From NCBI GenBank assembly GCA_964437285.1, contig CAYTGF010000002.1, positions 3,543 to 67,542 on the forward strand: a stretch of DNA of 64,000 nucleotides, given 5' to 3'. The position numbers and the translations under genes are program-made. Numbering within the stretch: position 1 is the stretch's first letter; the number at the start of each line of letters is the position of its first letter. This DNA comes from an uncultured Gammaproteobacteria bacterium. GTDB lineage: Bacteria; Patescibacteriota; Patescibacteriia; 2-12-FULL-60-25. Under the pieces are notes generated by a model. It did no database searches. It was not told where the DNA came from and was given only the letters and a program-made list of their open reading frames with translations. Below are positions 11,395 through 28,138 of this stretch, in pieces.

Positions 11395-11483
11395 ATAAAC
11401 ACAATGATAACACACGCGATTGACTTCCCCGTGTTTTTTGTGATAGAGGTGTGGCGTCTCTTTGTCACCGGAGGAGGTGTCGA

Positions 11484-12074
11484 ATGTTGACTCACGAGAC
11501 CTTGGAACGGATTCCGGCCATCACCCCTCACCGGGATGCGCCCGCGCTGAAACTGACCGTCACCCGGCAAACGAAGAACATGCTGGTACAACGGCACTTT
11601 CGCGGGCGATCTGTGGCTCGTGCGGGGAACTTCAAGCGCTGGGATACGATGCGCGCCTGTCTCCGAACGGTTCGGGATGATGTGGTGCGCGCGGCCATCG
11701 CCACGCTTCGAGAAATGCTTCTGAAGGAGGAGGTGGAGGGGGTCGACAGCGTCGAGCTCACCCTCCCCTACCCTGTGGGATGGGATACCGTGGCCGATCT
11801 AGGTCCAAAGAACGAGGATCTATTCGAGTATCGCTCGATTCGAGGACATCAAGCGGTGGCGTGGTTCTTTCATCCGAGAAGCCCAACCCTCGCTCCTCTC
11901 ACGAGAACCATGACGGTCGTGTACCGCATCCACCATCCTCGACGATCAAACGGGTGGACCTGCACGATTCTCACCATTCGACCAGGACCCGACCTCGGCG
12001 TCCTAAAAGGCCATGTCACTGAAAAGCTCGGTATCGCCCTCTTCGACTGGGATCATCCCGGCGTCACCCGCTAG
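11484..12074 (+). CDS. hypothetical protein, tandem paralog 1
   Basis: GGAGGAGG 6 nt upstream of ATG 11484. Shares RHF..ARAG.F..W, DSVELT, P.GW, LAPLT..TV.YR, GW.C..L..RPG.DL and HPG blocks with 12190..12777. Confidence 0.6.
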   Translation: MLTHETLERIPAITPHRDAPALKLTVTRQTKNMLVQRHFRGRSVARAGNFKRWDTMRACLRTVRDDVVRAAIATLREMLLKEEVEGVDSVELTLPYPVGWDTVADLGPKNEDLFEYRSIRGHQAVAWFFHPRSPTLAPLTRTMTVVYRIHHPRRSNGWTCTILTIRPGPDLGVLKGHVTEKLGIALFDWDHPGVTR

Positions 12075-12132
12075 CTCTTCCCGACGTCACGTCGGGATGT
12101 TTTTTAAGGAGCACGGCGGAATAAGCTTTGAC

Positions 12133-12161
12133 TTGACAAAGCCTCGTAAAACAGGTACAAT
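12133..12161 (+). promoter_or_regulatory. sigma70-type promoter
   Basis: TTGACA (12133-12138), 17-nt spacer, TACAAT (12156-12161). Confidence 0.6.
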
Positions 12162-12189
12162 TTCTCGTTCCTTCCACCAGGGAGAACCC

Positions 12190-12777
12190 ATGCTGTTGCA
12201 CCGGAGCGACCGGATTCAGACGCTCGAGAACACCACCATCACCTACCTGATTGGCGATCGGGAACGGAATCTTCTGCTCAAGCGTCACTTTTCTGATCCC
12301 GGCGCCGCCCGCGCCGGGAGCTTTCGTGACTGGGGGTCCATTCACCGCGCCTTCTACGCGCTGCACACGGAGCTCGAGCCGCACGTCATCGAGACGGCGC
12401 AGGAGGTCGCCCTGGGCAGCACCGGAGCGGAAGGCGACGAGCCCGACAGCGTGGAGCTGACCTTCGGACGTCCGATCGGTTGGTCCTGTACGCGGCTTCT
12501 GAACGCGTTCAGCGGAGAGCGGTTTGACATCGTCAAGTTGTCCGCGCGTCGCACCGGTTGGATGATTCCGGAGCATCGCACGGACCTCCTCGCCCCGCTC
12601 ACCAACCAGGTCACCGTGATCTACCGCGTGTGCCGCGATCGTCACGGACCTGGGTGGTGCTGTTTTCTTCTGAATCTCCGCCCCGGCGAAGATCTCGACG
12701 CCGATGACGGTGACATGACCGAGCAGACCGGCGTCGTCTTCTACCCCTTCGGCCACCCGGGCGAACCGCTCGCGTAA
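12190..12777 (+). CDS. hypothetical protein, tandem paralog 2
   Basis: GGAGAA upstream of ATG 12190; paralogous to 11484..12074. Confidence 0.6.
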   Translation: MLLHRSDRIQTLENTTITYLIGDRERNLLLKRHFSDPGAARAGSFRDWGSIHRAFYALHTELEPHVIETAQEVALGSTGAEGDEPDSVELTFGRPIGWSCTRLLNAFSGERFDIVKLSARRTGWMIPEHRTDLLAPLTNQVTVIYRVCRDRHGPGWCCFLLNLRPGEDLDADDGDMTEQTGVVFYPFGHPGEPLA

Positions 12778-12795
12778 CACGACAAGGAGATCAAT

Positions 12796-13116
12796 ATGGC
12801 AACAACACTGTTTCTGTTTTTCCCTCCTGATCAACGCGAAGCCGCCCTGCTGGCCATTCGCGACCTCTGGCGATCACCCCTGTTTCGCTCTACGAGTCTC
12901 TCGAAAAAGGAGGGCTCTCTCGAGTACTGGTCTCGAGAGCTTACGGGGTGGGAGCATCGAACACGGACAGGACCGCAGCTGGACGGATCCCTCAAGGTCA
13001 CCATCGAGGTTCGTCCCGACGTTCGCGAGTTCAGCGAGGCGGAACTGACAGCGATTCGTTCCATCACCGCCTTCAACGTCTGCCTGGAAACACCCGAGCG
13101 TAACCAAGCGCTGTAG
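12796..13116 (+). CDS. small hypothetical protein (family A, copy 1)
   Basis: 106 aa, AAGGAG upstream; paralogous to 13420..13743. Confidence 0.5.
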   Translation: MATTLFLFFPPDQREAALLAIRDLWRSPLFRSTSLSKKEGSLEYWSRELTGWEHRTRTGPQLDGSLKVTIEVRPDVREFSEAELTAIRSITAFNVCLETPERNQAL

Positions 13117-13161
13117 ACGCCACGACCGCTAAGGAGAAACCCCCTCCCCGCTGAGGTCGCC

Positions 13162-13398
13162 ATGCTCGACGATCGTCAGCACCCGGGCTGGCTCGACGGC
13201 CTGCGTCGAAGCGGCGTCTACCTCACCCCGGCCGCGCTCCACACCTGGCACGAGCGTCGAGCGTTGGGCGAGAACGGCTGCATTATCAACATCGGCGCGG
13301 TCGACAACAGCGAGCTCGACCCCGAGATCGTCGAGTATCTGAGGGAGAACGCGCCCTACCAGACCGCGTACACCGAGCAGACCGTCACCCTGTCCTGA
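13162..13398 (+). CDS. small hypothetical protein
   Basis: 78-aa ORF, co-directional in the array, weak SD. Confidence 0.4.
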   Translation: MLDDRQHPGWLDGLRRSGVYLTPAALHTWHERRALGENGCIINIGAVDNSELDPEIVEYLRENAPYQTAYTEQTVTLS

Positions 13399-13419
13399 AC
13401 AGGACTTAGGAGCAGCATC

Positions 13420-13743
13420 ATGCCCAGCACATTCTGGTTCTTCTTCGACACAAGCGAGCGCATCGAGGCGCTCAAGGCGATCCGGGAGTTCTGGTACCTC
13501 GCTGATCCTTCCGGTCCGCCATTCGGAAGCCCGTCGGAGCTCGACTAGCCCGAGTTCTGGGCTCAGAATCTGACGCACGGCGCCTTCCGAACCCGCCTGG
13601 TGCCGGAGCGGCATCAGCTCACCGTCTTCCTGACCATCTACAGCCGATACAGGAAGTTCACCTCAGCAGAGGTGGAGCTGCTGCGCCAGATCCCTTCCCT
13701 GCTCATTCGGTTGGAGAACCCCGACAGGCACTCCAAAGAATAG
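13420..13743 (+). pseudogene. family A copy 2 interrupted by an in-frame TAG at 13546-13548
   Basis: AGGAG 7 nt upstream of ATG 13420. The 107-codon frame aligns end to end with 12796..13116 (FWFFFDTSERIEALKAIREFW vs LFLFFPPDQREAALLAIRDLW). Codon 43 is TAG. A terminator follows. Confidence 0.5.
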
Positions 13744-13746
13744 CCT

Positions 13747-13774
13747 CCCCGATGATGATTCATCGGGGATTTTC
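13747..13774 (+). terminator. intrinsic terminator
   Basis: CCCCGATGA-TGAT-TCATCGGGG hairpin plus ATTTTC. Confidence 0.65.
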
Positions 13775-13786
13775 TATGCGAGAATA

Positions 13787-13815
13787 TTGACAAAATGAGT
13801 GATTGTAGGTACAAA
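13787..13815 (+). promoter_or_regulatory. sigma70-type promoter
   Basis: TTGACA (13787-13792), 17-nt spacer, TACAAA (13810-13815). Confidence 0.55.
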
Positions 13816-13844
13816 CATTCAGTTCTTTTCCCCAGGAGACACCC

Positions 13845-14765
13845 ATGAAGAACGCCCTCAAGAACCTGTTCCAGTCGGCAACACGGAACGCCATTCGAGC
13901 GCTTCCCGACACGGTACTCCTCCATCTGATCGCCATCCGCGATGCCTGGCAGCCGCGCTCCAAGGTCACCGTGTCCGAGGTGGTGGGCGGAGATGTCCTT
14001 CGACCTGACCAGAACGGCCGGCACACGATCGAGTTCTGGACCCAACAAAGCGACCAGGGCGACCCCGTCAAGAAGAACCGCGTCGTTCTCAACCTGACGC
14101 ACAAGGTGATCGATTTCAGCCAGACGAGATACCCCTACCTCCATGACCGCCACCCAGAGGAAGGCCTCGCGGGCTGGGCGCTGGAAGGATCTCTGGTACT
14201 GCGTGCCCTTCAACCCGTGTTCGACCTTCGCCAGAAGCACCTCAACCAACTCGAGACGCGTGCACAGGCGGAGACCGGAACCGATGCACGGACGGCCGCC
14301 TTTCAGCGAGCGCTTTGCGCGCAACTGAGCGACGAGGTACGAGAAGCGTTCCTGCTCTGCCAAGGGAATACCGATCGGTTCATGGATCGTGTCAAGCGGT
14401 GCACCGATGGCGATGAGGCGCGTGCCCTGCTGCAAGAGTGCGACCGCGCCCCTGCGCCGAGCTACCGGTCCGCCGAGTTCAAGCCGCACATCGAAGAGCT
14501 GCGCTGGATCCATCCCTGCGGCCTCGAAATTGCGCGAGCGGTGCTGACGTACCCTCGACATCCAGCGGGCTGCCGCACCAATCCCGAGGTGCTCATTCAG
14601 CTCAGGATCGGCGAGTCCGGCGAAGTCTTCTTCGAGGACTTCGAGCGTCACAACAGCGTCGAAGAGGCGAACGCACAGGGGCTGATCGGAGTCTATCGGG
14701 ACACGCTTCCGCATCATCCGCAAGACGACAAGCTCAACCCCTTCGCCGACGACATCCCGGCCTGA
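13845..14765 (+). CDS. hypothetical protein
   Basis: 306 aa. AGGAG upstream, promoter and terminator on the + strand. The longer opposite-strand ORF 13638..14768 has antisense-type L/R/V/G-rich composition. Confidence 0.6.
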   Translation: MKNALKNLFQSATRNAIRALPDTVLLHLIAIRDAWQPRSKVTVSEVVGGDVLRPDQNGRHTIEFWTQQSDQGDPVKKNRVVLNLTHKVIDFSQTRYPYLHDRHPEEGLAGWALEGSLVLRALQPVFDLRQKHLNQLETRAQAETGTDARTAAFQRALCAQLSDEVREAFLLCQGNTDRFMDRVKRCTDGDEARALLQECDRAPAPSYRSAEFKPHIEELRWIHPCGLEIARAVLTYPRHPAGCRTNPEVLIQLRIGESGEVFFEDFERHNSVEEANAQGLIGVYRDTLPHHPQDDKLNPFADDIPA

Positions 14766-14769
14766 CACA

Positions 14770-14793
14770 CCCCGCTCATTGAACGGGGTTTTT
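14770..14793 (+). terminator. intrinsic terminator
   Basis: CCCCG-loop-CGGGG hairpin plus T5. Confidence 0.6.
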
Positions 14794-14801
14794 CTTTTGG
14801 G

Positions 14802-14836
14802 TAAGAATCCTTTTTATGGAGTTTTGTGAAGACTCC
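14802..14836. repeat. degenerate half-copy of the TAAGGAATC-type element end
   Basis: TAAGAATCC + TTTTTAT + hairpin GGAGT-TTTGTGAAG-ACTCC, the same layout as the left ends of elements A-D. Confidence 0.35.
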
Positions 14837-14841
14837 CAGCT

Positions 14842-14899
14842 GCGTAACACAAAACCGGCTTTAGGGCCGGTTTTGGGGTGGTGCAGCGGCTGGGAATCG
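14842..14899. repeat. 58-bp direct repeat copy 1 (tRNA-Lys 3' 21 nt plus its terminator)
   Basis: Identical to 14980..15037 except one G/C difference. Confidence 0.85.
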
Positions 14900-14979
14900 C
14901 CTCGCTGACCGCTCGGACCTGGGCGCACATAGATTTACTCACACGGTGAGTTCGATATGCGCCCGTTCGATTGCTAGTC

Positions 14980-15037
14980 GCGTAACACAAAACCGGCTTT
15001 AGGGCCGGTTTTGGCGTGGTGCAGCGGCTGGGAATCG
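14980..15037. repeat. 58-bp direct repeat copy 2 (overlaps the genuine tRNA-Lys 3' end)
   Basis: 57/58 match to 14842..14899. Confidence 0.85.
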
Positions 15038-15092
15038 TACCCAGAACCTTGGGCTTAAGAGGCCCCTGCTCTACCGATTGAGCTACCGCTGC
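15017..15092 (-). tRNA. tRNA-Lys (anticodon CTT)
   Basis: Hand-folded cloverleaf GCAGCGG..GCTC-AATCGGTA-GAGC..CTCTTAA..CTGGG-TACGATT-CCCAG-CCGCTGC-ACCA. Encoded CCA. T-loop reads TAC instead of TTC, with one G-A mismatch at the base of the anticodon stem. Confidence 0.8.
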
Positions 15093-15187
15093 ATTTACAA
15101 GCTTTTGTGCCGGTAGGATACAGGGACGAAGCTTGCTTGTCAATGGAAAAACCGGTACGCTCGCCAAGCAAGAAAAACCCCATTCAC

Positions 15188-15264
15188 GCACCCGTAGCTC
15201 AGCTGGATAGAGTACTTCCCTCCGAAGGAAGGGGTCAGACGTTCGAATCGTCTCGGGTGCACCA
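15188..15264 (+). tRNA. tRNA-Arg (anticodon CCG), copy 1
   Basis: GCACCCG-TA-GCTC..GAGT-A-CTTCC-CTCCGAA-GGAAG..AGACG-TTCGAAT-CGTCT-CGGGTGC-ACCA. Confidence 0.9.
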
Positions 15265-15270
15265 TAAAAA

Positions 15271-15296
15271 ATACGACTTATGGAGTCGTGTTTTTA
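15271..15296 (+). terminator. intrinsic terminator after tRNA-Arg copy 1
   Basis: ACGACT-TATGG-AGTCGT hairpin plus T5. Confidence 0.65.
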
Positions 15297-15337
15297 TTTC
15301 TATGAACAGAAAATGTAAAGGCTCTACCTGGTTTCAT

Positions 15338-16507
15338 TTATCGAGTCAAAAAAGATAAAGCTCTTCTTAGCCTTGAAACACCATCCGAAGAAGCAGGAAC
15401 CTGCGATGAAGCGATCTGCCGCAACTCCTCTTGAATAGAGGACAGCGTCTTATTTTGACTCAAAATACCATGTAGTTCTTTTTTAAGACGTTTTCGTATA
15501 GCATCCTTTGTAGACTCATCAAGCGTTAAATCCTGATCAAGCTCTGCTAGACGTTGAGACATTTCATGAGCGATACGCCATGTTGCCCGCGAGTGAAGTG
15601 GGCGGTGAAAGTTCGAGTTCCAGTCCGTGACCTGTGTATGAAGCTTTTGCCATGGCGGGCCGCAGTCCCCTCTGTGTCGTGGGTTAAAGATAGGATGTTT
15701 AAACGAGGAAAATGCCAAACTTTCAACCTCCCCAAACCCATCTTCATTCGGAAAGGCGTGGCGCAGAAGAAGCTCCACAAACCATTTACTAAAAATACGT
15801 GTACGTCCCGTATGCTCATAATCATCAATAATGCAGGTCTTTGCATGATGCATGCGAAGCAAAGATACATGATAGACACGAGCTACTTCGTCTAGCTTTG
15901 TAAAATACATCTCTGCCTTCGCTTCTTTATCGGAGAGACTCCTAAGAAGCGCCTCGAATAACAATGGATTCTGCGTACTTCCTAGGCTATTTCTCACTTG
16001 CTCTTTTAGCTCAGGATCACTTGATGTGGCAGCCATTCGCATTCGTTCAACGGCTCGTTCCGCAGAACGAACCTGCTCCATCAGGTCCTCTCTATGCGCA
16101 AGTTTATCGAGTTCCTGCTTAAAGGATGAAGACCAATGAGCGCAATTCTCTGGAGAGGCGAAGAGCTTTTCAATCGCGCGATTCAATAAACCAATTCCAT
16201 CCGATCGCGTGACCTCCTGGCCTATATTCATGTACGTGATGTGAGGACCTTGCTTCGTAGGATAAAGCCTGGCCCATGTTTGCCGGAAAAGTACCGTCAA
16301 CGGACGTGCGGACTTATCCAGTAAGATGAGGTTGCGAATATTTTTGTCATGAAAATACTTGACTAAGGCTTCTGCGCGTTCTCGGATACGTTTTCGCTCT
16401 TGAGGGTCGGTAAAAATTGTTCCATCTTCTACTTCCTTCTTCGCGGATAATTTTTCTGACATAAATATATGATAGAACTTTTTTAGAGTTTGATCCATTA
16501 AAAGCAT
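15338..16507 (-). CDS. phosphoribosyltransferase-like protein with a long helical insertion
   Basis: 389 aa, AT-rich. NLILLDKSARPLTVLF and a PRPP-loop-like CIIDDYEHTGRT are separated by about 150 helical residues. Confidence 0.5.
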   Translation of the reverse strand: MLLMDQTLKKFYHIFMSEKLSAKKEVEDGTIFTDPQERKRIRERAEALVKYFHDKNIRNLILLDKSARPLTVLFRQTWARLYPTKQGPHITYMNIGQEVTRSDGIGLLNRAIEKLFASPENCAHWSSSFKQELDKLAHREDLMEQVRSAERAVERMRMAATSSDPELKEQVRNSLGSTQNPLLFEALLRSLSDKEAKAEMYFTKLDEVARVYHVSLLRMHHAKTCIIDDYEHTGRTRIFSKWFVELLLRHAFPNEDGFGEVESLAFSSFKHPIFNPRHRGDCGPPWQKLHTQVTDWNSNFHRPLHSRATWRIAHEMSQRLAELDQDLTLDESTKDAIRKRLKKELHGILSQNKTLSSIQEELRQIASSQVPASSDGVSRLRRALSFLTR

Positions 16508-16552
16508 TGGGGTTATTAACGACTATGCGCTATGTTTTTGTATATTCCCCAA

Positions 16553-16577
16553 CAAAAAACCTCGCCATACAGGCGAG
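16553..16577 (-). terminator. intrinsic terminator
   Basis: Minus strand reads CTCGCC-TGTAT-GGCGAG plus a T-run. Confidence 0.6.
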
Positions 16578-16583
16578 ACAGCT

Positions 16584-17540
16584 TCAGCGCTTGATGCGTG
16601 CCTTCACGATGTCGCGGAGCTGATCGTTCGTGAGACCCGTCCCCAGGCTTCGCGACGAGCCGCCGACGATGTCCGAGCCGTTCCAGCCGGTCTGCCGCGT
16701 CAGCCCGTCGGCCGCGTTCAGATCATCGTAGATGAGCGGGAGCGGAAAGTGCGTGACCCACTTCGAGTACCGACCGATGGAACACACCCGTCGACCATCC
16801 GTACGCTCCGCGATGATGGCGATGAATGCCTTCATCCCCTTCGAAAATAGCTTGTAGCGCTCGGGGCTTCCCCAGGTTTCGCGGTAGATCGTGAAGTCGT
16901 CGTCGCGATAGAGGATATTATGCCCAAGCTCCTTGGGCTGATTGACCCTGCCACCTCGATTCATCATGAAGTCCTGAAGACGACTCGCGACCGCCACATA
17001 GTTATCACGCAGCTGATAGCCGCTTGCTCGCGCCAGTTCGCCCGACGTCCGCAGATCCATGTACGGCTCGAAGATCCAGTTGTGCTGGGCGAGTAGATCG
17101 TCGTCGAGATTCATGGGGAACGCGCCGCCCGTGATATCGAGACGATCCGTGAGAGCGAGTAGCCGGTTGAGATGGGGGATGCTGTTCGTCCCTTCGAAAC
17201 GCTCGTGATTCAGCAGAAGCCAGAGCGCGAGCGATGTGTCCTGATCCGTGTCGTTGACCCAGACTTGGATATCGCCCTTAAGCGCGTCGACCATCCCGCC
17301 CTTGATGGCGAAGTAGATCTGATTCGCCGTCGACATGGTTGCTTCACGAATCACTCCGTCGTGGTGGTCAAAATTGAAGTGCAGCGTTTCGAAGTTATCG
17401 TACGGGCCTCCACGCACCGAACCGTCGAGGGCGATCGAGTTCGGCGGCGTCAACGCCTCGAACTCTTCACGCGTCCAGCCGACCCGCGGCACGAAGTGAA
17501 TGACCCATCGATCCTTACGATACGTGACTGATTCTTCCAT
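16584..17540 (-). CDS. hypothetical protein with His/Asp-rich motifs (FNFDHHDG, VNDTDQDT)
   Basis: 318 aa, GC-rich, own promoter and terminator. The motifs suggest a metal-dependent phosphoesterase, but the motif order does not match canonical DHH. Confidence 0.55.
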   Translation of the reverse strand: MEESVTYRKDRWVIHFVPRVGWTREEFEALTPPNSIALDGSVRGGPYDNFETLHFNFDHHDGVIREATMSTANQIYFAIKGGMVDALKGDIQVWVNDTDQDTSLALWLLLNHERFEGTNSIPHLNRLLALTDRLDITGGAFPMNLDDDLLAQHNWIFEPYMDLRTSGELARASGYQLRDNYVAVASRLQDFMMNRGGRVNQPKELGHNILYRDDDFTIYRETWGSPERYKLFSKGMKAFIAIIAERTDGRRVCSIGRYSKWVTHFPLPLIYDDLNAADGLTRQTGWNGSDIVGGSSRSLGTGLTNDQLRDIVKARIKR

Positions 17541-17574
17541 GGTTCACCGCTCCGCTCATTGGATATGAGCTTTG

Positions 17575-17604
17575 TCAGTATGATCCTCTTTAGGGAATTG
17601 TCAA
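17575..17604 (-). promoter_or_regulatory. sigma70-type promoter
   Basis: Minus strand reads TTGACA, 18-nt spacer, TACTGA. Confidence 0.5.
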
Positions 17605-17616
17605 TGCAGCTGGATG

Positions 17617-17638
17617 GGTCCGGAGTTGACTCCGGACC
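17617..17638. repeat. GGTCCGGAG-N4-CTCCGGACC hairpin (family member 1)
   Basis: Near-identical 27-nt block GGTCCGGAGTnnACTCCGGACCATTTT also occurs at 33165..33191. Confidence 0.7.
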
Positions 17639-17649
17639 ATTTTGTTTAC

Positions 17650-17726
17650 GCACCCGTAGCTCAGCTGGATAGAGCACTTCCCTCCGAAGGAAGGGGTCAG
17701 ACGTTCAAATCGTCTCGGGTGCACCA
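17650..17726 (+). tRNA. tRNA-Arg (anticodon CCG), copy 2
   Basis: Differs from copy 1 at two positions (D-stem T/C, T-loop G/A). The similar terminator hairpin is also duplicated. Confidence 0.9.
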
Positions 17727-17731
17727 TGGAA

Positions 17732-17758
17732 ACACGACCTATGCCGGTCGTGTTTTTA
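17732..17758 (+). terminator. intrinsic terminator after tRNA-Arg copy 2
   Basis: ACACGACC-loop-GGTCGTGT hairpin plus T5. Confidence 0.65.
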
Positions 17759-17766
17759 TGGGGAAG

Positions 17767-18174
17767 CTAATATCGAAATGGCTGTTCTACAGCTGCGTTC
17801 TGGGCCCGCTGATCGACAAATTTATAGCCGCATGAAAATATGATGATAAGGGTATAAATGACAAAGATCAAAAAGAAAGGCCAAGATCGAGCACGATTTT
17901 CCTTTGCCACAAAACCAAGGAAGAAAGAGAGGATCGCAAAAGGAACTGCGAAAAATACACTAAAGTAGTAGGTGAAGCGATAAAAGAAAGTTCCTGCATC
18001 GTCTGATACTGAATGCTTAATCCCAAACAGGCTAAGTAAGATAAGCAACCAGATAACGCCATAAGGAATAAGACCCACGAGGCTAACCCAAGGTCTCTTG
18101 TAAAAGAATTTTTGTATCATAATTGAAAGCTTACCAATCCTGTCTCTCTCGAGCAATATCACCACCGCACCCAA
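17767..18174 (-). CDS. hypothetical multi-pass membrane protein
   Basis: 135-aa AT-rich ORF with four hydrophobic segments. An alternative ATG is at 18120. Confidence 0.5.
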   Translation of the reverse strand: MGAVVILLERDRIGKLSIMIQKFFYKRPWVSLVGLIPYGVIWLLILLSLFGIKHSVSDDAGTFFYRFTYYFSVFFAVPFAILSFFLGFVAKENRARSWPFFLIFVIYTLIIIFSCGYKFVDQRAQNAAVEQPFRY

Positions 18175-18200
18175 GCTGTTCCCATATAGCCGTTAGAACT

Positions 18201-18220
18201 TCGTCTCTTAGGGTGCACCA
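18201..18220 (+). repeat. tRNA-Arg 3'-end fragment
   Basis: TCGTCTC-tta-GGGTGCACCA matches the last 17 nt of tRNA-Arg (TCGTCTCGGGTGCACCA) apart from a 3-nt insertion. Confidence 0.65.
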
Positions 18221-18222
18221 TG

Positions 18223-18254
18223 AAAAGGTTCCGGAGACGTCTCCGGAACCTTTT
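18223..18254. repeat. 32-nt perfect palindrome (GGTTCCGGAG variant of the hairpin family)
   Basis: AAAAGGTTCCGGAGAC|GTCTCCGGAACCTTTT. Confidence 0.8.
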
Positions 18255-18276
18255 GTCTATTCTGTTTCAAGCACGA

Positions 18277-18305
18277 TTGACAAAGTGCGTATTTTCTGGT
18301 AGATT
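18277..18305 (+). promoter_or_regulatory. sigma70-type promoter; ATG lies 9 nt after the -10
   Basis: TTGACA (18277-18282), 17-nt spacer, TAGATT (18300-18305). Confidence 0.6.
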
Positions 18306-18314
18306 CGAATCACT

Positions 18315-19085
18315 ATGTCGATTCGTGAACGATTGCAGGATCTTGGTCTCACCCCTACTGAAGCCACGATTTACCTCGCTGGATATAAACGAGTTGGGAT
18401 TGATATTCAGACGCTCGTCAAAGAAACCGATCTCAAGCGTCCAACTATTTACCACGCGCTTGAAACCCTTGTTCAAAAAGGACTTGTCGCGAAAAGCGGA
18501 TCGGAGAAGAAGCGGTTGTTTGTAATGGCTTCACCGGAGCGATTGGGCGGCTATCTGGATACACAAATCCAACAGCTCACTTCAAAAAAGGCGCTTCTCG
18601 GCGAACTCGGTTCCCTGCTCACGACAAGCGACGGCCGATCCAGCGCCATCCGCTCAGAACAATATGACGGCTTGCAAGGTGTGAAAACCGTGATGGAAGA
18701 AGCGCTGTACTGCAAGTCCCGTACTTGGAGCATCATCGCCCCGGCGCGCAACATCCTCAGTGATATGGACCCCGAGTATCAGCGCTACTACCTTCGCCAA
18801 CGCTCGACGCGCGGCATTAAGACTCGCACGTTATGGGAACGAAAATCCACCCCTGGAAAGCGCGGCCTCTCCCCCGCCGATCTCGCGCTCCGCAACCCTC
18901 GCTACCTTCCAAAAGCCCTTCAAGGACGTTTTCCCTCAATGATTATCCTGTTCGATGAGAAGATCGCCTTCTTCGGCACGAAAGAGACGCCGAGCGCAGT
19001 TTTGATCACCTCTGCCGAGTTGCACGCACTCGTCCTCGCGATGTTTGATGGAATTTGGGAGGTGTCGGAACCGTATAAGCAATAA
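18315..19085 (+). CDS. TrmB-family transcriptional regulator
   Basis: N-terminal wHTH LGLTPTEATIYLAGYK..IQTLVKETDLKRPTIYHALETLVQKGLV, typical of TrmB. Confidence 0.8.
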   Translation: MSIRERLQDLGLTPTEATIYLAGYKRVGIDIQTLVKETDLKRPTIYHALETLVQKGLVAKSGSEKKRLFVMASPERLGGYLDTQIQQLTSKKALLGELGSLLTTSDGRSSAIRSEQYDGLQGVKTVMEEALYCKSRTWSIIAPARNILSDMDPEYQRYYLRQRSTRGIKTRTLWERKSTPGKRGLSPADLALRNPRYLPKALQGRFPSMIILFDEKIAFFGTKETPSAVLITSAELHALVLAMFDGIWEVSEPYKQ

Positions 19086-19087
19086 AA

Positions 19088-19111
19088 CACCCCGACTTCG
19101 TGTCGGGGTTT
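19088..19111. terminator. bidirectional terminator
   Basis: CCCCGAC-TTCGT-GTCGGGG hairpin between convergent genes. Confidence 0.65.
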
Positions 19112-19114
19112 CAG

Positions 19115-20416
19115 TTACGCCGTCAGTCCATCTGTGCGACCGGCGAGGTCGACGTTCGCCTCGATGAAGGCGATGACCTTAGCGGGGTCCATCGTCTTCG
19201 GAAAGACGATGTTCGGGCCGTGCTTGTCGAGCATGACGGCGTGGATGCCATCGAAGTTCGCGAGCCCATCGTTCGTGTTGCGTCCGCATTCGTGCGAGCC
19301 GCATTCGTACGGCCGCTGCTCGCGTACCGGCACCATCGATCCAGGACGGAGCGGGCTGTGCATGTGCACGATGCAGTCGAGCTCAGGATGCGCCTCGAAG
19401 ATGATGCGCTGGCTCTGGCCACCCACGGACGGCTTGAAGCCGCGCGCGATCACCTCGTCCTCCCCACGCGGCTCGATGAGCACGAGTCCCGTCTCGTCCA
19501 GACGGTTGAAGTCCGTCTTGCGACGCGAAGTGAGGATGTTGCCGTTCGGCCCGCGCGAAGCGAAGTGGCCGACCGTCACACCGTTGAACGGCTTGTAGGC
19601 GCCGCGCGCGATGCAGTGGTTCACGACTTCGCGCAGCGACGGTGCCACCAACTCCGATCCCCACGACACCGCCTCGCCCGGCACGATCGTGGCCCGCGTG
19701 AACGTGAGCTGGGAACGCAGCGCGATCATCTCCGCGAGGCCAGCGAGCGCCTCGGCACGATTCGTCGTCTCGTGGTAGCGTGCCTGCTCAGGCGTGATCA
19801 CCATGTTCAGGCGCGTCTTGAGGTCATTCGCAAGTACCAGATTGCAACTCGCACCCTTCACGAGCGCCAGACCACGCAGATACTGCACGTCCGCCTCGAC
19901 TCCCGATGTCGTCTTGAAACCGACGAGGAACAGATCCTTGCGCTCACGACGAATGCTCGCAAGTACCTTCGGCGTCGACTTCGCCTCGATGACGAGCGAC
20001 TTCGACGATTCGAGCCGCGAACGCTCGCGACCCACCTGGCTCGAGGGATGACCGTCGACAATCAGCCGCGAAGGCTGAAAATCGGTGAGCGCCGCGGCGA
20101 GGACGATACCCTTCGTCGTCGGATCGGCGACGAGATGGTCGACGAGACGCTGAACGTCTTCGTTCGTGCGCAGATCCTTGATGCCGACACGAGCGAAGAA
20201 CGCCCGTTCCTCCGTCGAACGCTCCGCCCCACCGAGTGCCATCCGCGTCAGCACGAGCTGAACGCGGGCGTCCGGCTGCCCAAGGCGCACAAGCGCCTCC
20301 GCGAGCAGCGGAGCGAGCTCGCGCCCCACCGTCCCAAACGCCGGCGCCGAGAAGCTGAAGTGCGGCGCAACCTCCACAAACGTTCCACCCGCGATGACGT
20401 AGAAGATCCTGTCCAT
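19115..20416 (-). CDS. fusion protein: CoaB-like (phosphopantothenate-cysteine-ligase fold) N-domain plus class II aldolase/adducin-like C-domain
   Basis: 433 aa. N-domain: VIAGGTFVEVAP, AAALTDFQP, LVGFKTT, LVLANDL (CoaB-like blocks). C-domain: GHFASR..ILTSRRKTDF..KPSVGG..IIFEAHPELDCIVHMHSP (aldolase II-like with HxH). GGAGG upstream. Confidence 0.65.
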   Translation of the reverse strand: MDRIFYVIAGGTFVEVAPHFSFSAPAFGTVGRELAPLLAEALVRLGQPDARVQLVLTRMALGGAERSTEERAFFARVGIKDLRTNEDVQRLVDHLVADPTTKGIVLAAALTDFQPSRLIVDGHPSSQVGRERSRLESSKSLVIEAKSTPKVLASIRRERKDLFLVGFKTTSGVEADVQYLRGLALVKGASCNLVLANDLKTRLNMVITPEQARYHETTNRAEALAGLAEMIALRSQLTFTRATIVPGEAVSWGSELVAPSLREVVNHCIARGAYKPFNGVTVGHFASRGPNGNILTSRRKTDFNRLDETGLVLIEPRGEDEVIARGFKPSVGGQSQRIIFEAHPELDCIVHMHSPLRPGSMVPVREQRPYECGSHECGRNTNDGLANFDGIHAVMLDKHGPNIVFPKTMDPAKVIAFIEANVDLAGRTDGLTA

Positions 20417-20523
20417 GACAGCCTCCGTTGGAATGAGCCTGTAAGGCGGTTAATCACCTTACAACTCCTACGGTAACCAAAACCCCGCAGAAGCAGAACG
20501 CATGTTCATCACGAATGATGAAC

Positions 20524-20547
20524 AAAAGAAAAAGGAGCAGTTGCTCC
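20524..20547 (-). terminator. intrinsic terminator
   Basis: Minus strand reads GGAGC-AACT-GCTCC plus TTTTTCTTTT. Confidence 0.6.
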
Positions 20548-20552
20548 AGATA

Positions 20553-21011
20553 TCAGATGTCCCCGTCTCGGCCCTTACCCGAGTTCTTCCCCTCAAGATA
20601 GCAACTAGCATAGTGCTCGGAGAAGAAGACGTGGATACGATAGACGAATCTATGCGGTGCTTTGCCCTTATCCAGCCAATCGATGAACGTTAGAGCGTGT
20701 TCGTTGGGGGTCAGGTGAAAACGCGTGACGTTTTCTCCATCCCCAACAGCGATCCATACACCAGGCGATGCTTTCGTCGTACTTCGCCAGATCTTCAGGT
20801 CCAAGCATCTGCCCCACGCCGCGTCTTCTCGAATGCCGATCACTCCACGTTCAGCATCCTTTCTTTTTCGCCTGAACAAAGCGTTTGGCGCCACGTCCGT
20901 CGGCTTCTTGAGCGCGATCCGCTCAACTACTACCCAAAGCGGCTTCCGCGCCCCAGGCGTACACACCGCAGACCGAACCGTTCCAATCTCCTCCGTTTCT
21001 GCCATCTCCAT
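20553..21011 (-). CDS. hypothetical protein
   Basis: 152 aa with own promoter and terminator on the minus strand. Confidence 0.5.
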   Translation of the reverse strand: MEMAETEEIGTVRSAVCTPGARKPLWVVVERIALKKPTDVAPNALFRRKRKDAERGVIGIREDAAWGRCLDLKIWRSTTKASPGVWIAVGDGENVTRFHLTPNEHALTFIDWLDKGKAPHRFVYRIHVFFSEHYASCYLEGKNSGKGRDGDI

Positions 21012-21043
21012 ACCAGCACCCCTTTGTTGAGTAGCGCTAAGGA

Positions 21044-21072
21044 ATCCTAACCAAACACTCGCAAACCGTCAA
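21044..21072 (-). promoter_or_regulatory. sigma70-type promoter
   Basis: Minus strand reads TTGACG, 17-nt spacer, TAGGAT. The -10 lies inside TAGGATTCCTTAG, which matches the element-end motif. Confidence 0.5.
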
Positions 21073-21085
21073 TGGAGTGGATAGT

Positions 21086-21113
21086 AAAACACCCCTCAAA
21101 CAGGGGTGTTTTT
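21086..21113. terminator. intrinsic terminator downstream of ileS
   Basis: ACACCCC-TCAAACA-GGGGTGT hairpin with A/T runs on both sides. Confidence 0.7.
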
Positions 21114-21114
21114 C

Positions 21115-24090
21115 TTACCTCACCACCTTCAATGCCACCTTCCCCTTCGCCTCTCCAACTTCAACGTCACTCGTATGCTCGTATTCGCTCACCCAATTCT
21201 CAACGAGATTCACGCTCTCCGCGCGGAGATCCTTCGCGAGCGATCCGTTTCCTTCGAGAATCGCCTCACGCGTTTCACCGGCCGGGAAGAAGAAAAGCAC
21301 ATGCGCTCGATCCTTCGGCTCAAGTCTCGCCTGCTTACGAAGCGCCATGACGTGTCGCGAGAATTCGCGGCGGTAGCCTTTCTTGCGCAGATCTGGTGTG
21401 AGGACCGTGTCGAGTTCGAGTTCCCAGGCGTTGAGCAATCCGCTCTTGCCTTCGAGCATAATCGTATCGACGTTCAATTCTTCACGCAGCACTTCGAGAA
21501 GCGATTTTTTGGTCTGCCAGTATTCAAGCTTTTCTGGTTCGGCAAAAGAAATCTTGAGTGAAGCGAGCGCCTGACGAATCGGCATCGCGTGCTTCACGCG
21601 GAGTTCGAGCGCCGTGGAAGCGATATCGCGAATCCACTGCATATCCGTCTCTAACGTTTCGTCTTGGACACGAGCGGCGGGCTTTGGCCATGCTTCGAGG
21701 TGAACCGAGGTCTTCATGCCACCAATTTCCTGATACACCTTCTCCGCCAAGAACGGGATGAACGGCGCGCAGAGTTTTGTGAACTCTTCAAGAACTTCGC
21801 GAAGCGTCTTGAGCGCATCGTTTCGCTCGAAAGCGTTGTCCGACTTCAAGCGATCACGAGATCGACGGAGCCACCAGGTGGAAAGCTCGTCGATAAAGTC
21901 TCGGAGCGGTCGCGTGGCTTTGAGGACCTCGTATCCGTCCATGGATTCTGTGATTTGCGCGGTGAGATGAGACAAGCGGGACAATATCCATCGGTCCATC
22001 ACATGACCGCTCCGTGGTTTTTCGAGTTTTACTCCTTCTCCGGCGTAGGTTTTGTAGAACGCGACGATATTCCAATACAAATTCAGGAACGTACGCGTCA
22101 CCGTCTGCACGTCTTTTTCGGAAAAATTCAAGGCTTCTGCTTCAACGATCGGCGACGTGAGGAGGTAATACCGCAAGGCATCCGCGCCATGGTTCGCGAA
22201 TAAATCCCAGGGGTCTGTATAGTTCTTCAAGCTCTTCGACATTTTTCGACCATCTTCCGCGAGCATCATTCCTGTGACGATCACGTTTTTGAACGCCGGC
22301 TTATTAAACAGCGCCGTCGAAAGCACATGGAGCGCGTAGAACCAACCACGGGTTTGATCTTGCCCTTCCGCAATGAAGTCCGCAGGTGAATGCGCATCAA
22401 AGAAGCGCTTCTGCTCAAACGGATAGTGGAGTTGTGCGACCGGCATCGATCCCGACTCAAACCAGCAGTCAAACACTTCGGTTGTACGCTTCATGGTTCC
22501 ACCGCAGGCGCAAGGAATCGTGACATTGTCAATGTGGGGTCGATGGAGATTTTGCGTATCGGTACACGTTCCGGGCGTCGCGAGCTTTTTGAGTTCTTTG
22601 AGCGAGCTCACGATCTTGGTTTCGGCGCAAGAATCACAGTGCCAGACAGGAATTGGGGATCCCCAAAACCGTGAACGGGAGATATTCCAATCTGGGGCTG
22701 TTTCAAGCCCCTTTCCAAAACGACCTTCACGAAAATGTTCGGGATGCCAATGAATTTTCTGTGCAGTCTTGAGCATTTTCTCTTTTATCGACGTCACATT
22801 CACAAACCAAGCTGGTTGTGCCTTGTACATGAGCAGCGTCGAACAACGCCAACAAATCGCGACACTGTGCGTGATGGTTTCTGCACGATAAAGCAACCCT
22901 CGCTCACGAAGATGATTCACGATGAGCGGATCTGCTTCTTTGATAGGTACACCCGCAAACTCGCTGCAGATAGGCATCATGCGACCTTCCTCGTCGACCA
23001 TTTCTATGATCGGGAGATTATGCTCGCGAGCCATCTGCAAGTCTTCTTCGCCATACGCAGGAGCGGTGTGTACAATCCCCGTTCCATCATCTGCCGTCAC
23101 ATGCGTACCAGAAACCACGCGATACGCCTGATCATCCGCTTCCACGAACGAGAATAACGGCTCGTAGCGTTTGCCCACGAGATCAAAGCCCTTCATACGC
23201 TCGATGACGAGCACCTTCGCGACCCCCGCTTCAAGCCCTCCCCACTCTTTCAGCACCTCTTCCGCACGCGACGTGGCAAAAATCAGCGTGTCACCCGTTT
23301 CTTGAATACGCACCTTCATGTATTCTAATTCTGGATGGACGGAAAGCCCCGTATTCGCGGGTAAGGTCCAAGGCGTGGTCGTCCAAGCGAGGAAATAGGT
23401 TTTCTCTTCGTCTTTTACTGGGAACTTCACGTACACCGCCGGGTCTTCACGATCGACATACGAATTCCCCATCGCGATCTCAAAGTTGGAGAGCGGCGTT
23501 GAACAACGCGGACAAAACAACGACACGCGCGTACCGCGATAGACCAGCTCTTTTTTATAGAGCTCTGAAAATACCCACCACACCGATTCGATGTAGTCGG
23601 TCTTCATGGTCATGTACGGATCTTTAAAATCCACCCATCGACCAATGCGATCAATATACTTTCCCCAGTCAGACTCATGTCGCAACACAGACGCTTCACA
23701 TGCGTCGTTGAACTTCTCGATGCCATGCGCCTCAATGTCACGTTTTGACTTGAGCTTCAATTCTTTTTCGATCAGATTCTCGACCGGCAACCCATGACAA
23801 TCCCATCCCCAACGACGCGGCACGCGATATCCTTTCATCGTCCAATACCGTGGCACCGCATCTTTCAAGACTGATTGAAGCAAGTGCCCCGCATGCGGTA
23901 ATCCGGTCGCAAATGGCGGACCATCATAAAATACAAATGTCTTACGAGGGGAACGCTCTGAAATTGTGCGTTCAAACACGTTCTGTTCTTTCCAGTACGC
24001 CAATACCTCTTCTTCCATCTTTGGGAACGGAGAACGGCGTTTTTCCTCATTTTGGGACGCTGAAGCGCCCGACGAAGCGTGGTCGGCCAT
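21115..24090 (-). CDS. ileS: isoleucine--tRNA ligase
   Basis: HIGH-type motif PFATGLPHAGH, KMSKS motif, editing domain. Start taken at ATG 24090; the ORF extends to 24192, so the start is uncertain. Confidence 0.93.
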   Translation of the reverse strand: MADHASSGASASQNEEKRRSPFPKMEEEVLAYWKEQNVFERTISERSPRKTFVFYDGPPFATGLPHAGHLLQSVLKDAVPRYWTMKGYRVPRRWGWDCHGLPVENLIEKELKLKSKRDIEAHGIEKFNDACEASVLRHESDWGKYIDRIGRWVDFKDPYMTMKTDYIESVWWVFSELYKKELVYRGTRVSLFCPRCSTPLSNFEIAMGNSYVDREDPAVYVKFPVKDEEKTYFLAWTTTPWTLPANTGLSVHPELEYMKVRIQETGDTLIFATSRAEEVLKEWGGLEAGVAKVLVIERMKGFDLVGKRYEPLFSFVEADDQAYRVVSGTHVTADDGTGIVHTAPAYGEEDLQMAREHNLPIIEMVDEEGRMMPICSEFAGVPIKEADPLIVNHLRERGLLYRAETITHSVAICWRCSTLLMYKAQPAWFVNVTSIKEKMLKTAQKIHWHPEHFREGRFGKGLETAPDWNISRSRFWGSPIPVWHCDSCAETKIVSSLKELKKLATPGTCTDTQNLHRPHIDNVTIPCACGGTMKRTTEVFDCWFESGSMPVAQLHYPFEQKRFFDAHSPADFIAEGQDQTRGWFYALHVLSTALFNKPAFKNVIVTGMMLAEDGRKMSKSLKNYTDPWDLFANHGADALRYYLLTSPIVEAEALNFSEKDVQTVTRTFLNLYWNIVAFYKTYAGEGVKLEKPRSGHVMDRWILSRLSHLTAQITESMDGYEVLKATRPLRDFIDELSTWWLRRSRDRLKSDNAFERNDALKTLREVLEEFTKLCAPFIPFLAEKVYQEIGGMKTSVHLEAWPKPAARVQDETLETDMQWIRDIASTALELRVKHAMPIRQALASLKISFAEPEKLEYWQTKKSLLEVLREELNVDTIMLEGKSGLLNAWELELDTVLTPDLRKKGYRREFSRHVMALRKQARLEPKDRAHVLFFFPAGETREAILEGNGSLAKDLRAESVNLVENWVSEYEHTSDVEVGEAKGKVALKVVR

Positions 24091-24134
24091 ATGGTTACCA
24101 TCTTGGCCTGAACGAGCTGGGCGGTCAAGAACTC

Positions 24135-24164
24135 TTGACAACTGAGCCAATTTTTGGCAGTATT
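24135..24164 (+). promoter_or_regulatory. sigma70-type promoter
   Basis: TTGACA (24135-24140), 18-nt spacer, AGTATT. Confidence 0.45.
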
Positions 24165-24211
24165 CCATCTTGCCCTTTCCGTTCCTTTCCAACCACGCTC
24201 ACGGAGGCGTC

Positions 24212-25549
24212 ATGTATCAGGGAACCCCGCTCACACTCAGGCCCGAAGCCCTCGAAGCCGCCGAGACCGGCAAGCGCGTCATCACCAAGTTCGAAAGGTT
24301 CGGGGAACGATACGTCTGGGTATTCTATCCGAATGGGTTGCAGGTGATGTTCGAGCTTCGCAAGCTGCCGTTCGTCCACATCAACATCGGGATTCGTACT
24401 GGGGCCTTCGATGACGAAATCCCTGGCACGGCCCACGCCCTCGAGCACATGCTGGTGAAAGACCCGCTGATTGAGGGTGATCACCCGGTCCTTCAGCCGC
24501 TTGCACCCTACGGGCTGGAAGTGAATGCATCGACCGATTACGAAACCGTCGAGCTTTACGGAAAAACTGCTTATCGCAAATGGCGAGAACTACTGAAAAG
24601 CTTGCTTACAATGATGTTTCAGGCAAACACGATCGATGAGAAACGCTGGCAAAAGGAACGACCGGCGATCGAGCAGGAGATCCACTCTTTGAAAGAAGAG
24701 AAGCTCCTCGACGGAGCACTCCGCGAGCTTCTTCATCCCCACGTTCCTCAGCTCCATCCTCGGTCCTTCGGTACGCTCGCATCCGTCCTCAGCCTTAGTG
24801 CTGAACGGCTTCGTGAGCGATACGAACGTGACTTTCATCCTGACAATGCGGTCATCGTGTTTCACGGGATAACGGATTATGAACGAGCGCTCACACGCCT
24901 TGAAGAAGACGTTTCTCTCGTCACACGGTCATCGACAGAGCGTAGACCGCCGCGCGCCGTGCTACCTTATCTCGCGCAGCACGTGAATGCCGAACTGAAG
25001 TTCAAAGGCAGCTCCTCCGTCGAACGAGTGATCGGCTACGCTCAGCTCCGCAATGACGGGACCAGCATTCCCTTGGAAACAGTGCACGTCCTTCGGGTGT
25101 GTCTAAACGATGGCGGCATTCTGCGGGATGAATTGCGCCGCAAGCGCGGCTGGACGTACAGCCAAGGCTGCAGCGTCCAGACCCAGCGAGACGACCTCAT
25201 TGTCCTCAATATCAGCGCACAAATGCGTGCAGAGTTTCATTCAGCTGCCAAGACGGCCGTGCGGAACCTCTGGCGCGAAACGTGTGAACAATTGGGCAAC
25301 CAAGATCCTGCATGTACGTACGCCCTGAAACGCGCTCGAGGAGCTCATGCTCTGCGGTACATGCAACGAAACCTCGATCGAGGCGAGCTGAGCGTCAACT
25401 TCCTTGTAAGCACCTGGCTCGAGCAACGTCTCCCCAAACACCGTCCCTTCATCGAAATCCCACCCGACGAGTTCCCCGCCATCGCCCGCCACGCTCCCAA
25501 GCTCGCGGATCTCGACTGGCACATGATCTCTGTCGTGCAGGACACCTGA
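24212..25549 (+). CDS. M16-family (pitrilysin-like) zinc peptidase
   Basis: HxxEH motif GTAHALEHML. GGAGG upstream of ATG 24212. Confidence 0.8.
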   Translation: MYQGTPLTLRPEALEAAETGKRVITKFERFGERYVWVFYPNGLQVMFELRKLPFVHINIGIRTGAFDDEIPGTAHALEHMLVKDPLIEGDHPVLQPLAPYGLEVNASTDYETVELYGKTAYRKWRELLKSLLTMMFQANTIDEKRWQKERPAIEQEIHSLKEEKLLDGALRELLHPHVPQLHPRSFGTLASVLSLSAERLRERYERDFHPDNAVIVFHGITDYERALTRLEEDVSLVTRSSTERRPPRAVLPYLAQHVNAELKFKGSSSVERVIGYAQLRNDGTSIPLETVHVLRVCLNDGGILRDELRRKRGWTYSQGCSVQTQRDDLIVLNISAQMRAEFHSAAKTAVRNLWRETCEQLGNQDPACTYALKRARGAHALRYMQRNLDRGELSVNFLVSTWLEQRLPKHRPFIEIPPDEFPAIARHAPKLADLDWHMISVVQDT

Positions 25550-25590
25550 CGCTTTTTCTCATTCGAGAGGAAGCGTCTTTTTTGTTTTCG

Positions 25591-25599
25591 TGGTATCCT
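25591..25599 (+). promoter_or_regulatory. extended -10 (TGgTATCCT) 8 nt upstream of the rpiB ATG
   Basis: TGGTATCCT-TAGGCTAT-ATG, no SD. Confidence 0.35.
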
Positions 25600-25607
25600 T
25601 AGGCTAT

Positions 25608-26045
25608 ATGTCGACGTTCATTCTTGGGGCGGATCATGGGGGTTTTGCCCTCAAAGAACACCTCAAGCGCACCTTAGAGCACAAGGGAATCGCCTATCAG
25701 GATGTGACGGAAGATCTGCAAGACGGCGATGACTATCCTCCGATCGCGCAACATGTCGCGCAACTCGTCAAGGATCGAAGCGACACGTTTGGACTGCTCA
25801 TTTGTCGATCCGGTATCGGTATGGATATTGCGGCGAATCGTTTTCGAGGGATTCGCGCAACCACCATTCGTAACGCCGAAGAAGCTCGGATGGCACGTGA
25901 GCATAACCATGCGAATGTTCTTGTATTGGGAGCGGACTTTACCTCTCCAAAACAGGCAGAGCACATCCTCATAACCTGGCTTGACGCTCGTCCATCGTAT
26001 GCGCAGCGTCACGTTCGACGCGTTCATCAACTCGACACGCTATGA
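25608..26045 (+). CDS. rpiB: ribose-5-phosphate isomerase B
   Basis: ILGADHGGFALKEHL, CRSGIGMDIAANR, VLVLGA motifs. TGA stop overlaps the rpe ATG. Confidence 0.9.
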   Translation: MSTFILGADHGGFALKEHLKRTLEHKGIAYQDVTEDLQDGDDYPPIAQHVAQLVKDRSDTFGLLICRSGIGMDIAANRFRGIRATTIRNAEEARMAREHNHANVLVLGADFTSPKQAEHILITWLDARPSYAQRHVRRVHQLDTL

Positions 26046-28122: not shown

Positions 28123-28138
28123 CGTACGGTGAAGGTAT

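Follow-up and report, generated by a model that had tools for sequence, protein, structure and literature searches.

The tycheposon islands of Prochlorococcus are tRNA-linked variable regions built by repeated integration (bioRxiv 10.1101/2020.12.28.424599). Hot spots without mobile elements, in which genes turn over by homologous recombination at the flanks, are also documented (Oliveira et al. 2017, PMC5635113), as is, in transformable bacteria, homology-facilitated illegitimate recombination, which combines one-sided homology with an illegitimate join (PMC3240628). Recognisable mobile elements are few in the tiny genomes of candidate-phyla bacteria, and the exchange of accessory genes is accordingly poorly documented in this group. 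Here, we analyzed a 64-kb stretch of contig CAYTGF010000002.1 (assembly GCA_964437285.1; hereafter the window), in which a tRNA-Arg(CCG) gene occurs twice around a two-gene islet. A preliminary description of this DNA, made from the sequence alone, had read the pattern as serial insertions at one tRNA. We favour, with moderate confidence, the reading that the locus is a tRNA-linked gene-turnover hot spot which combines one old integration scar with two versions of the locus, set in tandem by recombination between lineages. The hot spot would span the interval from tRNA-Arg(CCG) to a TrmB-like gene in one candidate-phyla (Patescibacteria-like) lineage, and the window would hold a compound version of it with three layers. 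The locus was compared with that of five close relatives (L001, L002, L008, L025 and L026/L027) and with 16 distant metagenome loci that share the 3' half of the tRNA. The L001, L002, L025 and L026 lineages stem from samples DRR736439, SRR13612670, SRR26784073 and SRR24791510.

ARAGORN predicted seven tRNA genes in the window, including two copies of tRNA-Arg(CCG) on the plus strand. Copy 1 (15188-15264; Rfam score of 63.1 bits) is in the native position, adjoining a tRNA-Lys gene, and copy 2 (17650-17726; 65.5 bits) is intact. The native upstream region is absent from copy 2, and a promoter-like site was looked for there and none was detected. As first described, the two copies differ at exactly two positions (T/C at 15213 and G/A at 15245). 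Read on the cloverleaf, both differences appear compatible with a working tRNA, since they give G10-U25 against G10-C25 and keep a purine at T-loop position 57. The repeat around the copies starts 5 nt 5' of the tRNA and extends through a related terminator (ACGACT..AGTCGTGTTTTT with terminator 1, ACGACC..GGTCGTGTTTTT with terminator 2). Similar terminators had been reported after each tRNA; the hairpins are indeed related, but only 19 of 36 positions are identical, and this part of the repeat is far more diverged than the tRNA part. Terminator 1 (15267-15295) is a bidirectional hairpin that serves both copy 1 and a convergent gene of 389 aa, and homologous hairpins are found in L002 and L025. 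Terminator 2 (AAACACGACC..GGTCGTGTTTTT; 17730-17757) has its closest match in L025, in the terminator behind the only tRNA-Arg there. When positions 14700-18400 were searched against Rfam at a permissive threshold, tRNA was the sole RNA family matched. The 9-mer TTGTCAATG, which lies upstream of both copies, was considered as an extension of their homology and rejected, as it represents the -35 box (TTGACA) of minus-strand promoters.

Two minus-strand genes, of 389 aa (15338-16507) and 318 aa (16584-17540), lie between the tRNA copies, and a membrane-protein open reading frame (ORF; 17767-18120, minus strand) follows copy 2. Downstream of this ORF, the 3' end of the tRNA-Arg recurs as TCGTCTC-TTA-GGGTGCACCATGAAAA (18201-18226, plus strand). 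This fragment had been noticed at 18201-18220, with the reservation that so short a match could be due to chance. It is a third, partial copy of the tRNA and not a chance match: the pattern TCGTCTC-N0-4-GGGTGCACCA has three matches against 0.00 expected (100 shuffles), local alignment of 18201-18226 to the tRNA scores 32 against a maximum of 27 over 300 shuffles, and the identity to the tRNA end runs 6-7 nt beyond the CCA. The 474-bp segment with the membrane ORF is enclosed by copy 2 and the fragment as direct repeats of the tRNA 3' end, while the flanking repeats of the two-gene block are whole tRNAs, in the window only.

Two allelic hairpins complete the layout. Hairpin A with its T-tail (GGTCCGGAGTTGACTCCGGACC ATTTTGTTTA; 17617-17648, plus strand) is the final stretch at 100% identity with L001. 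Hairpin B with its T-tail (18223-18259, plus strand) is its allelic counterpart, by comparison with L002, L026 and L008, and the two are identical at 27 of 33 positions. Hairpin B stands where L008, whose site is empty, has the tRNA's own terminator, and the succession of scar and hairpin B parallels that of tRNA end and terminator in L008. Judged on this order, the layout is the expected result of an integration at the tRNA 3' end. The hairpin motif TCCGGAG-N4-CTCCGGA, a 22-bp terminator-like stem followed by a T-run, is present in three copies in the window (17619-17636, 18230-18247 and 33167-33184; 0.01 expected) and may represent either a type of terminator that recurs or a small repeat element. 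The third copy (GGTCCGGAGTGAACTCCGGACCATTTT, 33167-33184) closely resembles hairpin A; the 3' end of a tRNA-Thr gene is about 180 nt away. These recurring hairpins also prompted us to consider an integron cassette array, which was rejected since neither an integrase nor attC-like sites were found; attC-like sites measure 57 bp or more.

A single tRNA-Arg(CCG) is present in each of the 21 related loci, and two copies occur in the window only. The preliminary description had set against insertion an ancient tandem duplication of the tRNA-Arg with its intervening genes conserved in relatives. L001 and L002 do possess both intervening genes in the same position, but two tRNA copies exist in no relative, close or distant, and gene content differs in nearly every one; this explanation is thereby refuted, and we regard it as extremely improbable. 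The single tRNA-Arg with an empty site that had been proposed as a comparison was found in L008, a genome bin with approximately 80% DNA identity that is collinear with window positions 19104-29681. In L008, tRNA-Lys and tRNA-Arg are followed by the terminator and, 172 nt later, by the TrmB gene, and a search of this empty site for remnants of the cargo found none. L001 matches window positions 15215-17648 with one mismatch in 2434 bp (99.96%); its hairpin A and T-tail lead directly into the TrmB promoter and gene, with no second tRNA. In L002, which also has a single tRNA and whose islet is 83-94% identical to that of the window, the order is tRNA-Arg, terminator, a 396-aa gene, a homolog of the 318-aa gene, hairpin B and TrmB. 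L026, whose TrmB protein is 91% identical to that of the window, shows tRNA-Arg, a different terminator, the last 30 codons of the 318-aa gene with its terminator, an unrelated 384-aa gene, a hairpin and TrmB. In L025, tRNA-Arg is followed by a terminator like terminator 2, by a 375-aa member of the 389-aa family and directly by the IleRS gene; the 318-aa gene, TrmB, and the 433-aa and 152-aa genes are missing. The 16 distant loci each have one tRNA copy, usually paired with tRNA-Lys, and their downstream genes are unrelated.

Overall, the window and its close relatives display six configurations of the locus. Gene content differs at the same position in close relatives, with signs of recombination at the flanks, and because of this variation the locus is a gene-turnover hot spot. 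A search for the cargo beside tRNA-Arg elsewhere had been suggested; it lies there in L001, L002 and, for the 389-aa family only, L025, but members of the 318-aa family outside these relatives occur in varied contexts, none adjoining tRNA-Arg(CCG). Since the two-gene block lies in the same place in L001 and L002 with one tRNA, and has left a remnant in L026, it is the usual, inherited occupant in the window's closest relatives and not a freshly integrated element. At the far end of the block, no significant tRNA scar was found in the window, L001, L002 or L025 (best 9-mer CAGCTGGAT, p of about 0.04). In L002, the 318-aa homolog has a 1-nt deletion (L002 position 675; gene coordinate 55-56) that shifts the frame at codon 19, owing either to gene decay or to a sequencing error; this and the L026 remnant suggest that the 318-aa gene is dispensable.

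Two observations concern the tRNA in these contigs. The Logan contigs of L001 and L026 break inside the tRNA-Arg or at its edge (L001 ends at window position 15215, L026 starts at tRNA position 1); the L001 contig is linear, ends inside the tRNA and has no end overlap, and its break falls at a 31-mer common to both tRNA variants, which implies that sample DRR736439 also holds both. In L010 and L024, a truncated tRNA-like 5' fragment (GATAGAGCGTCCCGATG...GGTCAGACGTTCGAAxCC) is found in the 60 nt immediately upstream of the intact tRNA-Arg(CCG).

Compared with L001 and L002, the window has an additional 611-bp module, composed of tRNA-Arg copy 2, terminator 2, the orphan ORF, the tRNA scar and the second hairpin with its T-tail, and bounded by the two allelic hairpins. 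This module is the window-specific addition; the two-gene block, which had been taken for the unit bounded by tRNA repeats, has that form in no relative. The nearest relative of the window switches at the module. Over positions 15236-17648, its identity is 100% with L001 and 70-98% with L002, and the 95 nt of the window after the hairpin, in the 5' flank of TrmB, are closest to L002 (95.7%), followed by L026/L027 (87.2%) and L001 (80.9%). The window is a mosaic, L001-like on the left and L002-like on the right. The L001-like tract takes in hairpin A, which is ordinary chromosomal flank in L001, and thus cannot have been transferred as a precisely excised element. The new junction, 1 nt 5' of tRNA copy 2, has only about TTxA in common with the parental sequences.

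Such a mosaic could in principle come from the assembler, if two strain variants in one metagenome had been joined head to tail. The window belongs to an 86.5-kb contig of a public assembly, its halves resemble different strains, and tRNA repeats do break assemblies in related samples, L001 itself ending within the tRNA. The junction (GTTTAC/GCACCC) is new, however, and occurs in neither single-copy arrangement; a graph assembler needs reads across it, and the alleles have no common long k-mer at this point. We therefore hold an artefact to be very improbable. An in-place tandem duplication of the 2462-bp unit from tRNA to hairpin, followed by divergence and gene replacement in the second copy, would produce exactly the head-to-tail junction of hairpin tail and tRNA 5' end, with tRNA, terminator and hairpin each present twice in unchanged order. 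It is clearly improbable given the divergence of the parts: the terminators are identical at 19 of 36 positions and the hairpins differ at 6 of 33, yet the segment from copy 1 to hairpin A is 100% identical to that of another lineage. In addition, positions 17760-18200 have no similarity to the 389-aa or 318-aa genes, and both the 3' fragment and the change of nearest relative across the junction are left unexplained.

The serial insertions first proposed for this locus would be a classical case of site-specific integration, in which two small elements, now without integrase, entered the same tRNA-Arg in succession, the newer pushing the older inward. The integrase would be encoded elsewhere or since lost, and the element with the 389-aa and 318-aa genes would have carried a complete tRNA-Arg in its attachment site. 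Several features agree with this. Copy 1, copy 2 and the fragment form direct repeats in the order of accretion, homologous terminators follow both tRNA copies and the L025 tRNA, the 389-aa gene and the membrane ORF are AT-rich, and the site is empty in L008. Serial integration that leaves degenerate remnants and partial tRNAs is described for tycheposons (bioRxiv 10.1101/2020.12.28.424599). Recombinases also occur at the orthologous tRNA in distant relatives. L009 encodes a 282-aa serine recombinase (Resolvase and Recombinase domains) on the minus strand, 89-937 nt downstream of tRNA-Arg(CCG), and about 4.85 kb downstream the tRNA 3' end recurs as a degenerate 40-nt copy, the only significant repeat among the 16 distant loci. 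The recombinase beside the tRNA and the repeat 4.85 kb away suggest that L009 carries a small integrated element. A 159-aa recombinase remnant lies about 2 kb downstream of the same tRNA in L015 and L020.

Other observations speak against serial integration of the two-gene block. The simple form of this explanation does not predict the middle repeat, which is a whole tRNA and follows hairpin A, a chromosomal flank in L001 and L002. L001 and L002 carry the same block without a second tRNA or a significant scar, so that a whole-tRNA attachment site and later deletions in both would have to be assumed. The remnant in L026 argues for vertical residence, and the 318-aa gene is host-like in composition, its family being widespread and probably inherited vertically. 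As in the first inspection, no integrase was recognised: integrase, resolvase, recombinase and transposase domains were found neither in the islet genes nor in the approximately 58 ORFs of the window. PADLOC and PHROGs gave no hits for the cargo genes, and the tRNA itself was the only match to known phages and plasmids. Among viral contigs, the 318-aa family was found in only six large ones, the 389-aa family was absent, and a scan for the 3' 32-mer of the tRNA had no match. Taken together, the idea of insertion at the tRNA stands as regards the variable site, the empty L008 locus, the scar and the recombinases in distant relatives, but serial insertion of the two-gene block is not supported, and we consider it unlikely.

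In the hot-spot reading that we favour, the first layer would be an old integration at the tRNA 3' end, which would have left the scar at 18201-18226 beside the displaced original terminator, hairpin B, and would have put a new terminator and an AT-rich orphan ORF behind the restored tRNA, now copy 2. The repeat structure is observed directly; the site-specific mechanism is what we infer from it, and the scar, together with the recombinases of relatives, indicates that integration of this type took place at least once. The second layer would be the inherited resident pair, a phosphoribosyltransferase (PRTase)-like orphan and a DHH-like phosphoesterase gene. The third would be a very recent recombination between two diverged lineages, by which an L001-like version (copy 1 to hairpin A) came to stand directly upstream of an L002-like version (copy 2 to hairpin B and TrmB). 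For this layer, too, the mosaic itself is seen in the alignments. The join would be the work not of an integrase but of general or illegitimate recombination, acting on taken-up DNA with homology as the anchor on one side, and the tandem of two versions would be most simply explained by a one-sided homologous event with an illegitimate join. Since the window encodes no mobility function, the islets are now passive cargo.

Several points weigh against this reading. The join precedes the mature 5' end of tRNA copy 2 by exactly 1 nt. For an illegitimate join, such a coincidence is suspicious, and it hints at a specific mechanism. Homologous terminators behind both tRNA copies would fit related elements with the tRNA end and terminator in their attachment site. 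DNA uptake by this organism is an assumption on which a join of taken-up DNA would depend. The mosaic rests on approximately 95 nt, which is all of the L001 right flank there is, and donor and recipient sides cannot be told apart. The absence of recombinases applies to the 64-kb window; the search took in neither the other 22 kb of this contig nor the remainder of the genome. A portable docking module, consisting of a complete tRNA-Arg with its terminator, would answer some of these points: small gene cassettes headed by it would stack or replace one another at the chromosomal tRNA with no integrase of their own, either by host recombination over the 77 bp of the tRNA once DNA had been taken up or by a recombinase acting in trans, like the L009 serine recombinase. 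This would account for the join exactly at the tRNA 5' end and for the related terminators across cassettes; we rate it as quite unlikely.

Regarding the cargo, the two minus-strand genes show the contrast in composition first reported, with G+C contents (GC) of 44.8% for the 389-aa gene and 58.8% for the 318-aa gene, the window mean being 54.3%. The 389-aa gene belongs to an AT-rich orphan family; a conserved start at MSEKLS would shorten it to approximately 374 aa (15338-16462). A search of 5.8 billion proteins gave only three full-length relatives of its product, all encoded at this locus in close relatives. Pfam, NCBIfam and PADLOC gave no match and PHROGs nothing meaningful, while the N-terminal 80 residues have approximately 280 distant, unannotated relatives, with a Pfam match in none of the ten scanned. 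The motif CIIDDYEHTGRT, which resembles a phosphoribosyl pyrophosphate (PRPP) loop, is conserved in the family alignment, and structural matches to HGPRT are short (56-60 residues, probability of approximately 0.5) and come from a low-confidence model (predicted local distance difference test, pLDDT, of 61). Because of the conserved motif and these short local matches, the initial label of a PRTase-like protein is plausible but unproven.

The 318-aa protein belongs to a family of at least 484 proteins (about 55% identity), widely distributed among candidate-phyla bacteria and not covered by a Pfam model. The few members with a name are from Uhrbacteria, Wolfebacteria and Moranbacteria bins, and it is on these that the assignment of the window's organism to the candidate phyla is based. 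Neither Pfam nor a sequence search of the PDB gave matches for the 318-aa protein, and the PDB search was likewise negative for the 389-aa protein. The AlphaFold model of the 318-aa protein (pLDDT 91.8) has PAP phosphatase, RecJ2 and PggH as top Foldseek matches, and the match to the DHH enzyme 8a8k has an E-value of 4.7e-4 and a probability of 0.99, but a TM-score of only 0.35. About 55 residues are invariant in the family, including D39, H59, H60, D97, D99 and D101, which fit the His/Asp motifs of DHH enzymes. The model and these residues suggest a DHH-like phosphoesterase, in agreement with the His/Asp motif seen at the outset. The label 'Abortive infection protein' on a Wolfebacteria member was set aside, as the fold does not support it.

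The ORF between copy 2 and the fragment had been described as an AT-rich membrane-protein gene. The ORF does encode three hydrophobic segments in 117 aa (135 aa from a TTG at 18174), with a GC of 40.1%, but its status as a gene is unproven: no relatives were found when they were searched for, and the ORF is a singleton orphan. Exact look-ups of the window TrmB, the membrane ORF and the 389-aa protein retrieved no other contigs.

The neighbouring genes are housekeeping genes (aminoacyl-tRNA synthetases, RNase Y, pentose-phosphate enzymes). The conserved right flank is the gene of the TrmB-family regulator (18315-19085, plus strand), with a promoter at 18277-18305. Further right, the 433-aa protein (19115-20416, minus strand) is an unusual fusion of CoaB/DFP-like and class II aldolase domains; its gene has a GC of 81% at third codon positions, and the L008 counterpart is 86% identical. 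The conserved left flank is tRNA-Lys(CTT) (15017-15092, minus strand; ARAGORN and Rfam), the divergent partner of tRNA-Arg, and this pair is kept in 13 of the 16 distant loci. The T-loop of the window tRNA-Lys is UACGAUU, with A at the normally invariant position 55, and L008 has the usual UUCGAUU.

A second copy of the last 21-23 nt of tRNA-Lys with its terminator (14831-14899, minus strand; 69 nt, 91% identical to 14969-15037) had been overlooked in the preliminary description, and the same arrangement exists in L008. Between the two tRNA-Lys ends (window 14840-15016, minus strand; L008 2-175), a unique 69-nt stretch folds as a long hairpin in which three base pairs show compensatory changes between the window and L008; an acceptor-like minihelix with a terminal CCA comes next (minimum free energy of -42.7 kcal/mol, z of -3.4). 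This feature matches no Rfam family and has no counterpart at the 16 distant loci; it may represent a small RNA derived from tRNA-Lys or the scar of an old integration. A GC-rich block (11451-14765, 60.8%), situated 3' of tRNA-Lys, holds ORFs without family match, among them two adjacent paralogs (11451-12074 and 12013-12777; 32% identity, E-value of 2e-30), and may be a second variable region; the L008 contig stops short of it.

The locus offers a case resolved by comparison, with six contents and one integration scar at a single tRNA-flanked site, and with a 2.4-kb block common to lineages at 99.96% although their flanks differ by approximately 20%. Three uncharacterised families come and go there, namely the DHH-like phosphoesterase, the fast-evolving PRTase-like orphan and the membrane orphan. 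The likeness to the tycheposon islands lies in the small size and streamlining of the genome, in the tRNA gene that seeds the variable region, in the presence of a full tRNA copy at the near end and a partial one further in, and in orphan-gene cargo and remnants without integrase. Unlike these islands, the window locus has neither integrase nor replication module, its islets measure only 0.5-2.4 kb, its middle repeat is a complete tRNA after a host terminator, and the nearest recombinase seen is of the serine type and belongs to distant relatives. With the hot spots of Oliveira et al. (PMC5635113), it shares rapid turnover between conserved flanks (tRNA-Lys/tRNA-Arg on one side, TrmB or IleRS on the other), the lack of mobility genes and a mosaic indicative of recombination with related lineages. 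Under that concept, replacement by double crossover would be expected, whereas the window stacks two alleles with a duplicated tRNA, and its tRNA-end scar points to at least one event of site-specific type. As in homology-facilitated illegitimate recombination, one end of the block lies in conserved sequence and the other is a new junction with at most 3-4 shared nt (TTxA); in contrast, a junction at the tRNA 5' end is not predicted by that process, which is known from other bacteria. Overall, the locus is best fitted by the action of both known routes, integration of site-specific type and general recombination between lineages. It is an ordinary kind of tRNA-linked variable region and not a new type of element; its mechanism is of a known kind, and its value lies in providing an example and a candidate source in a group with few documented cases.

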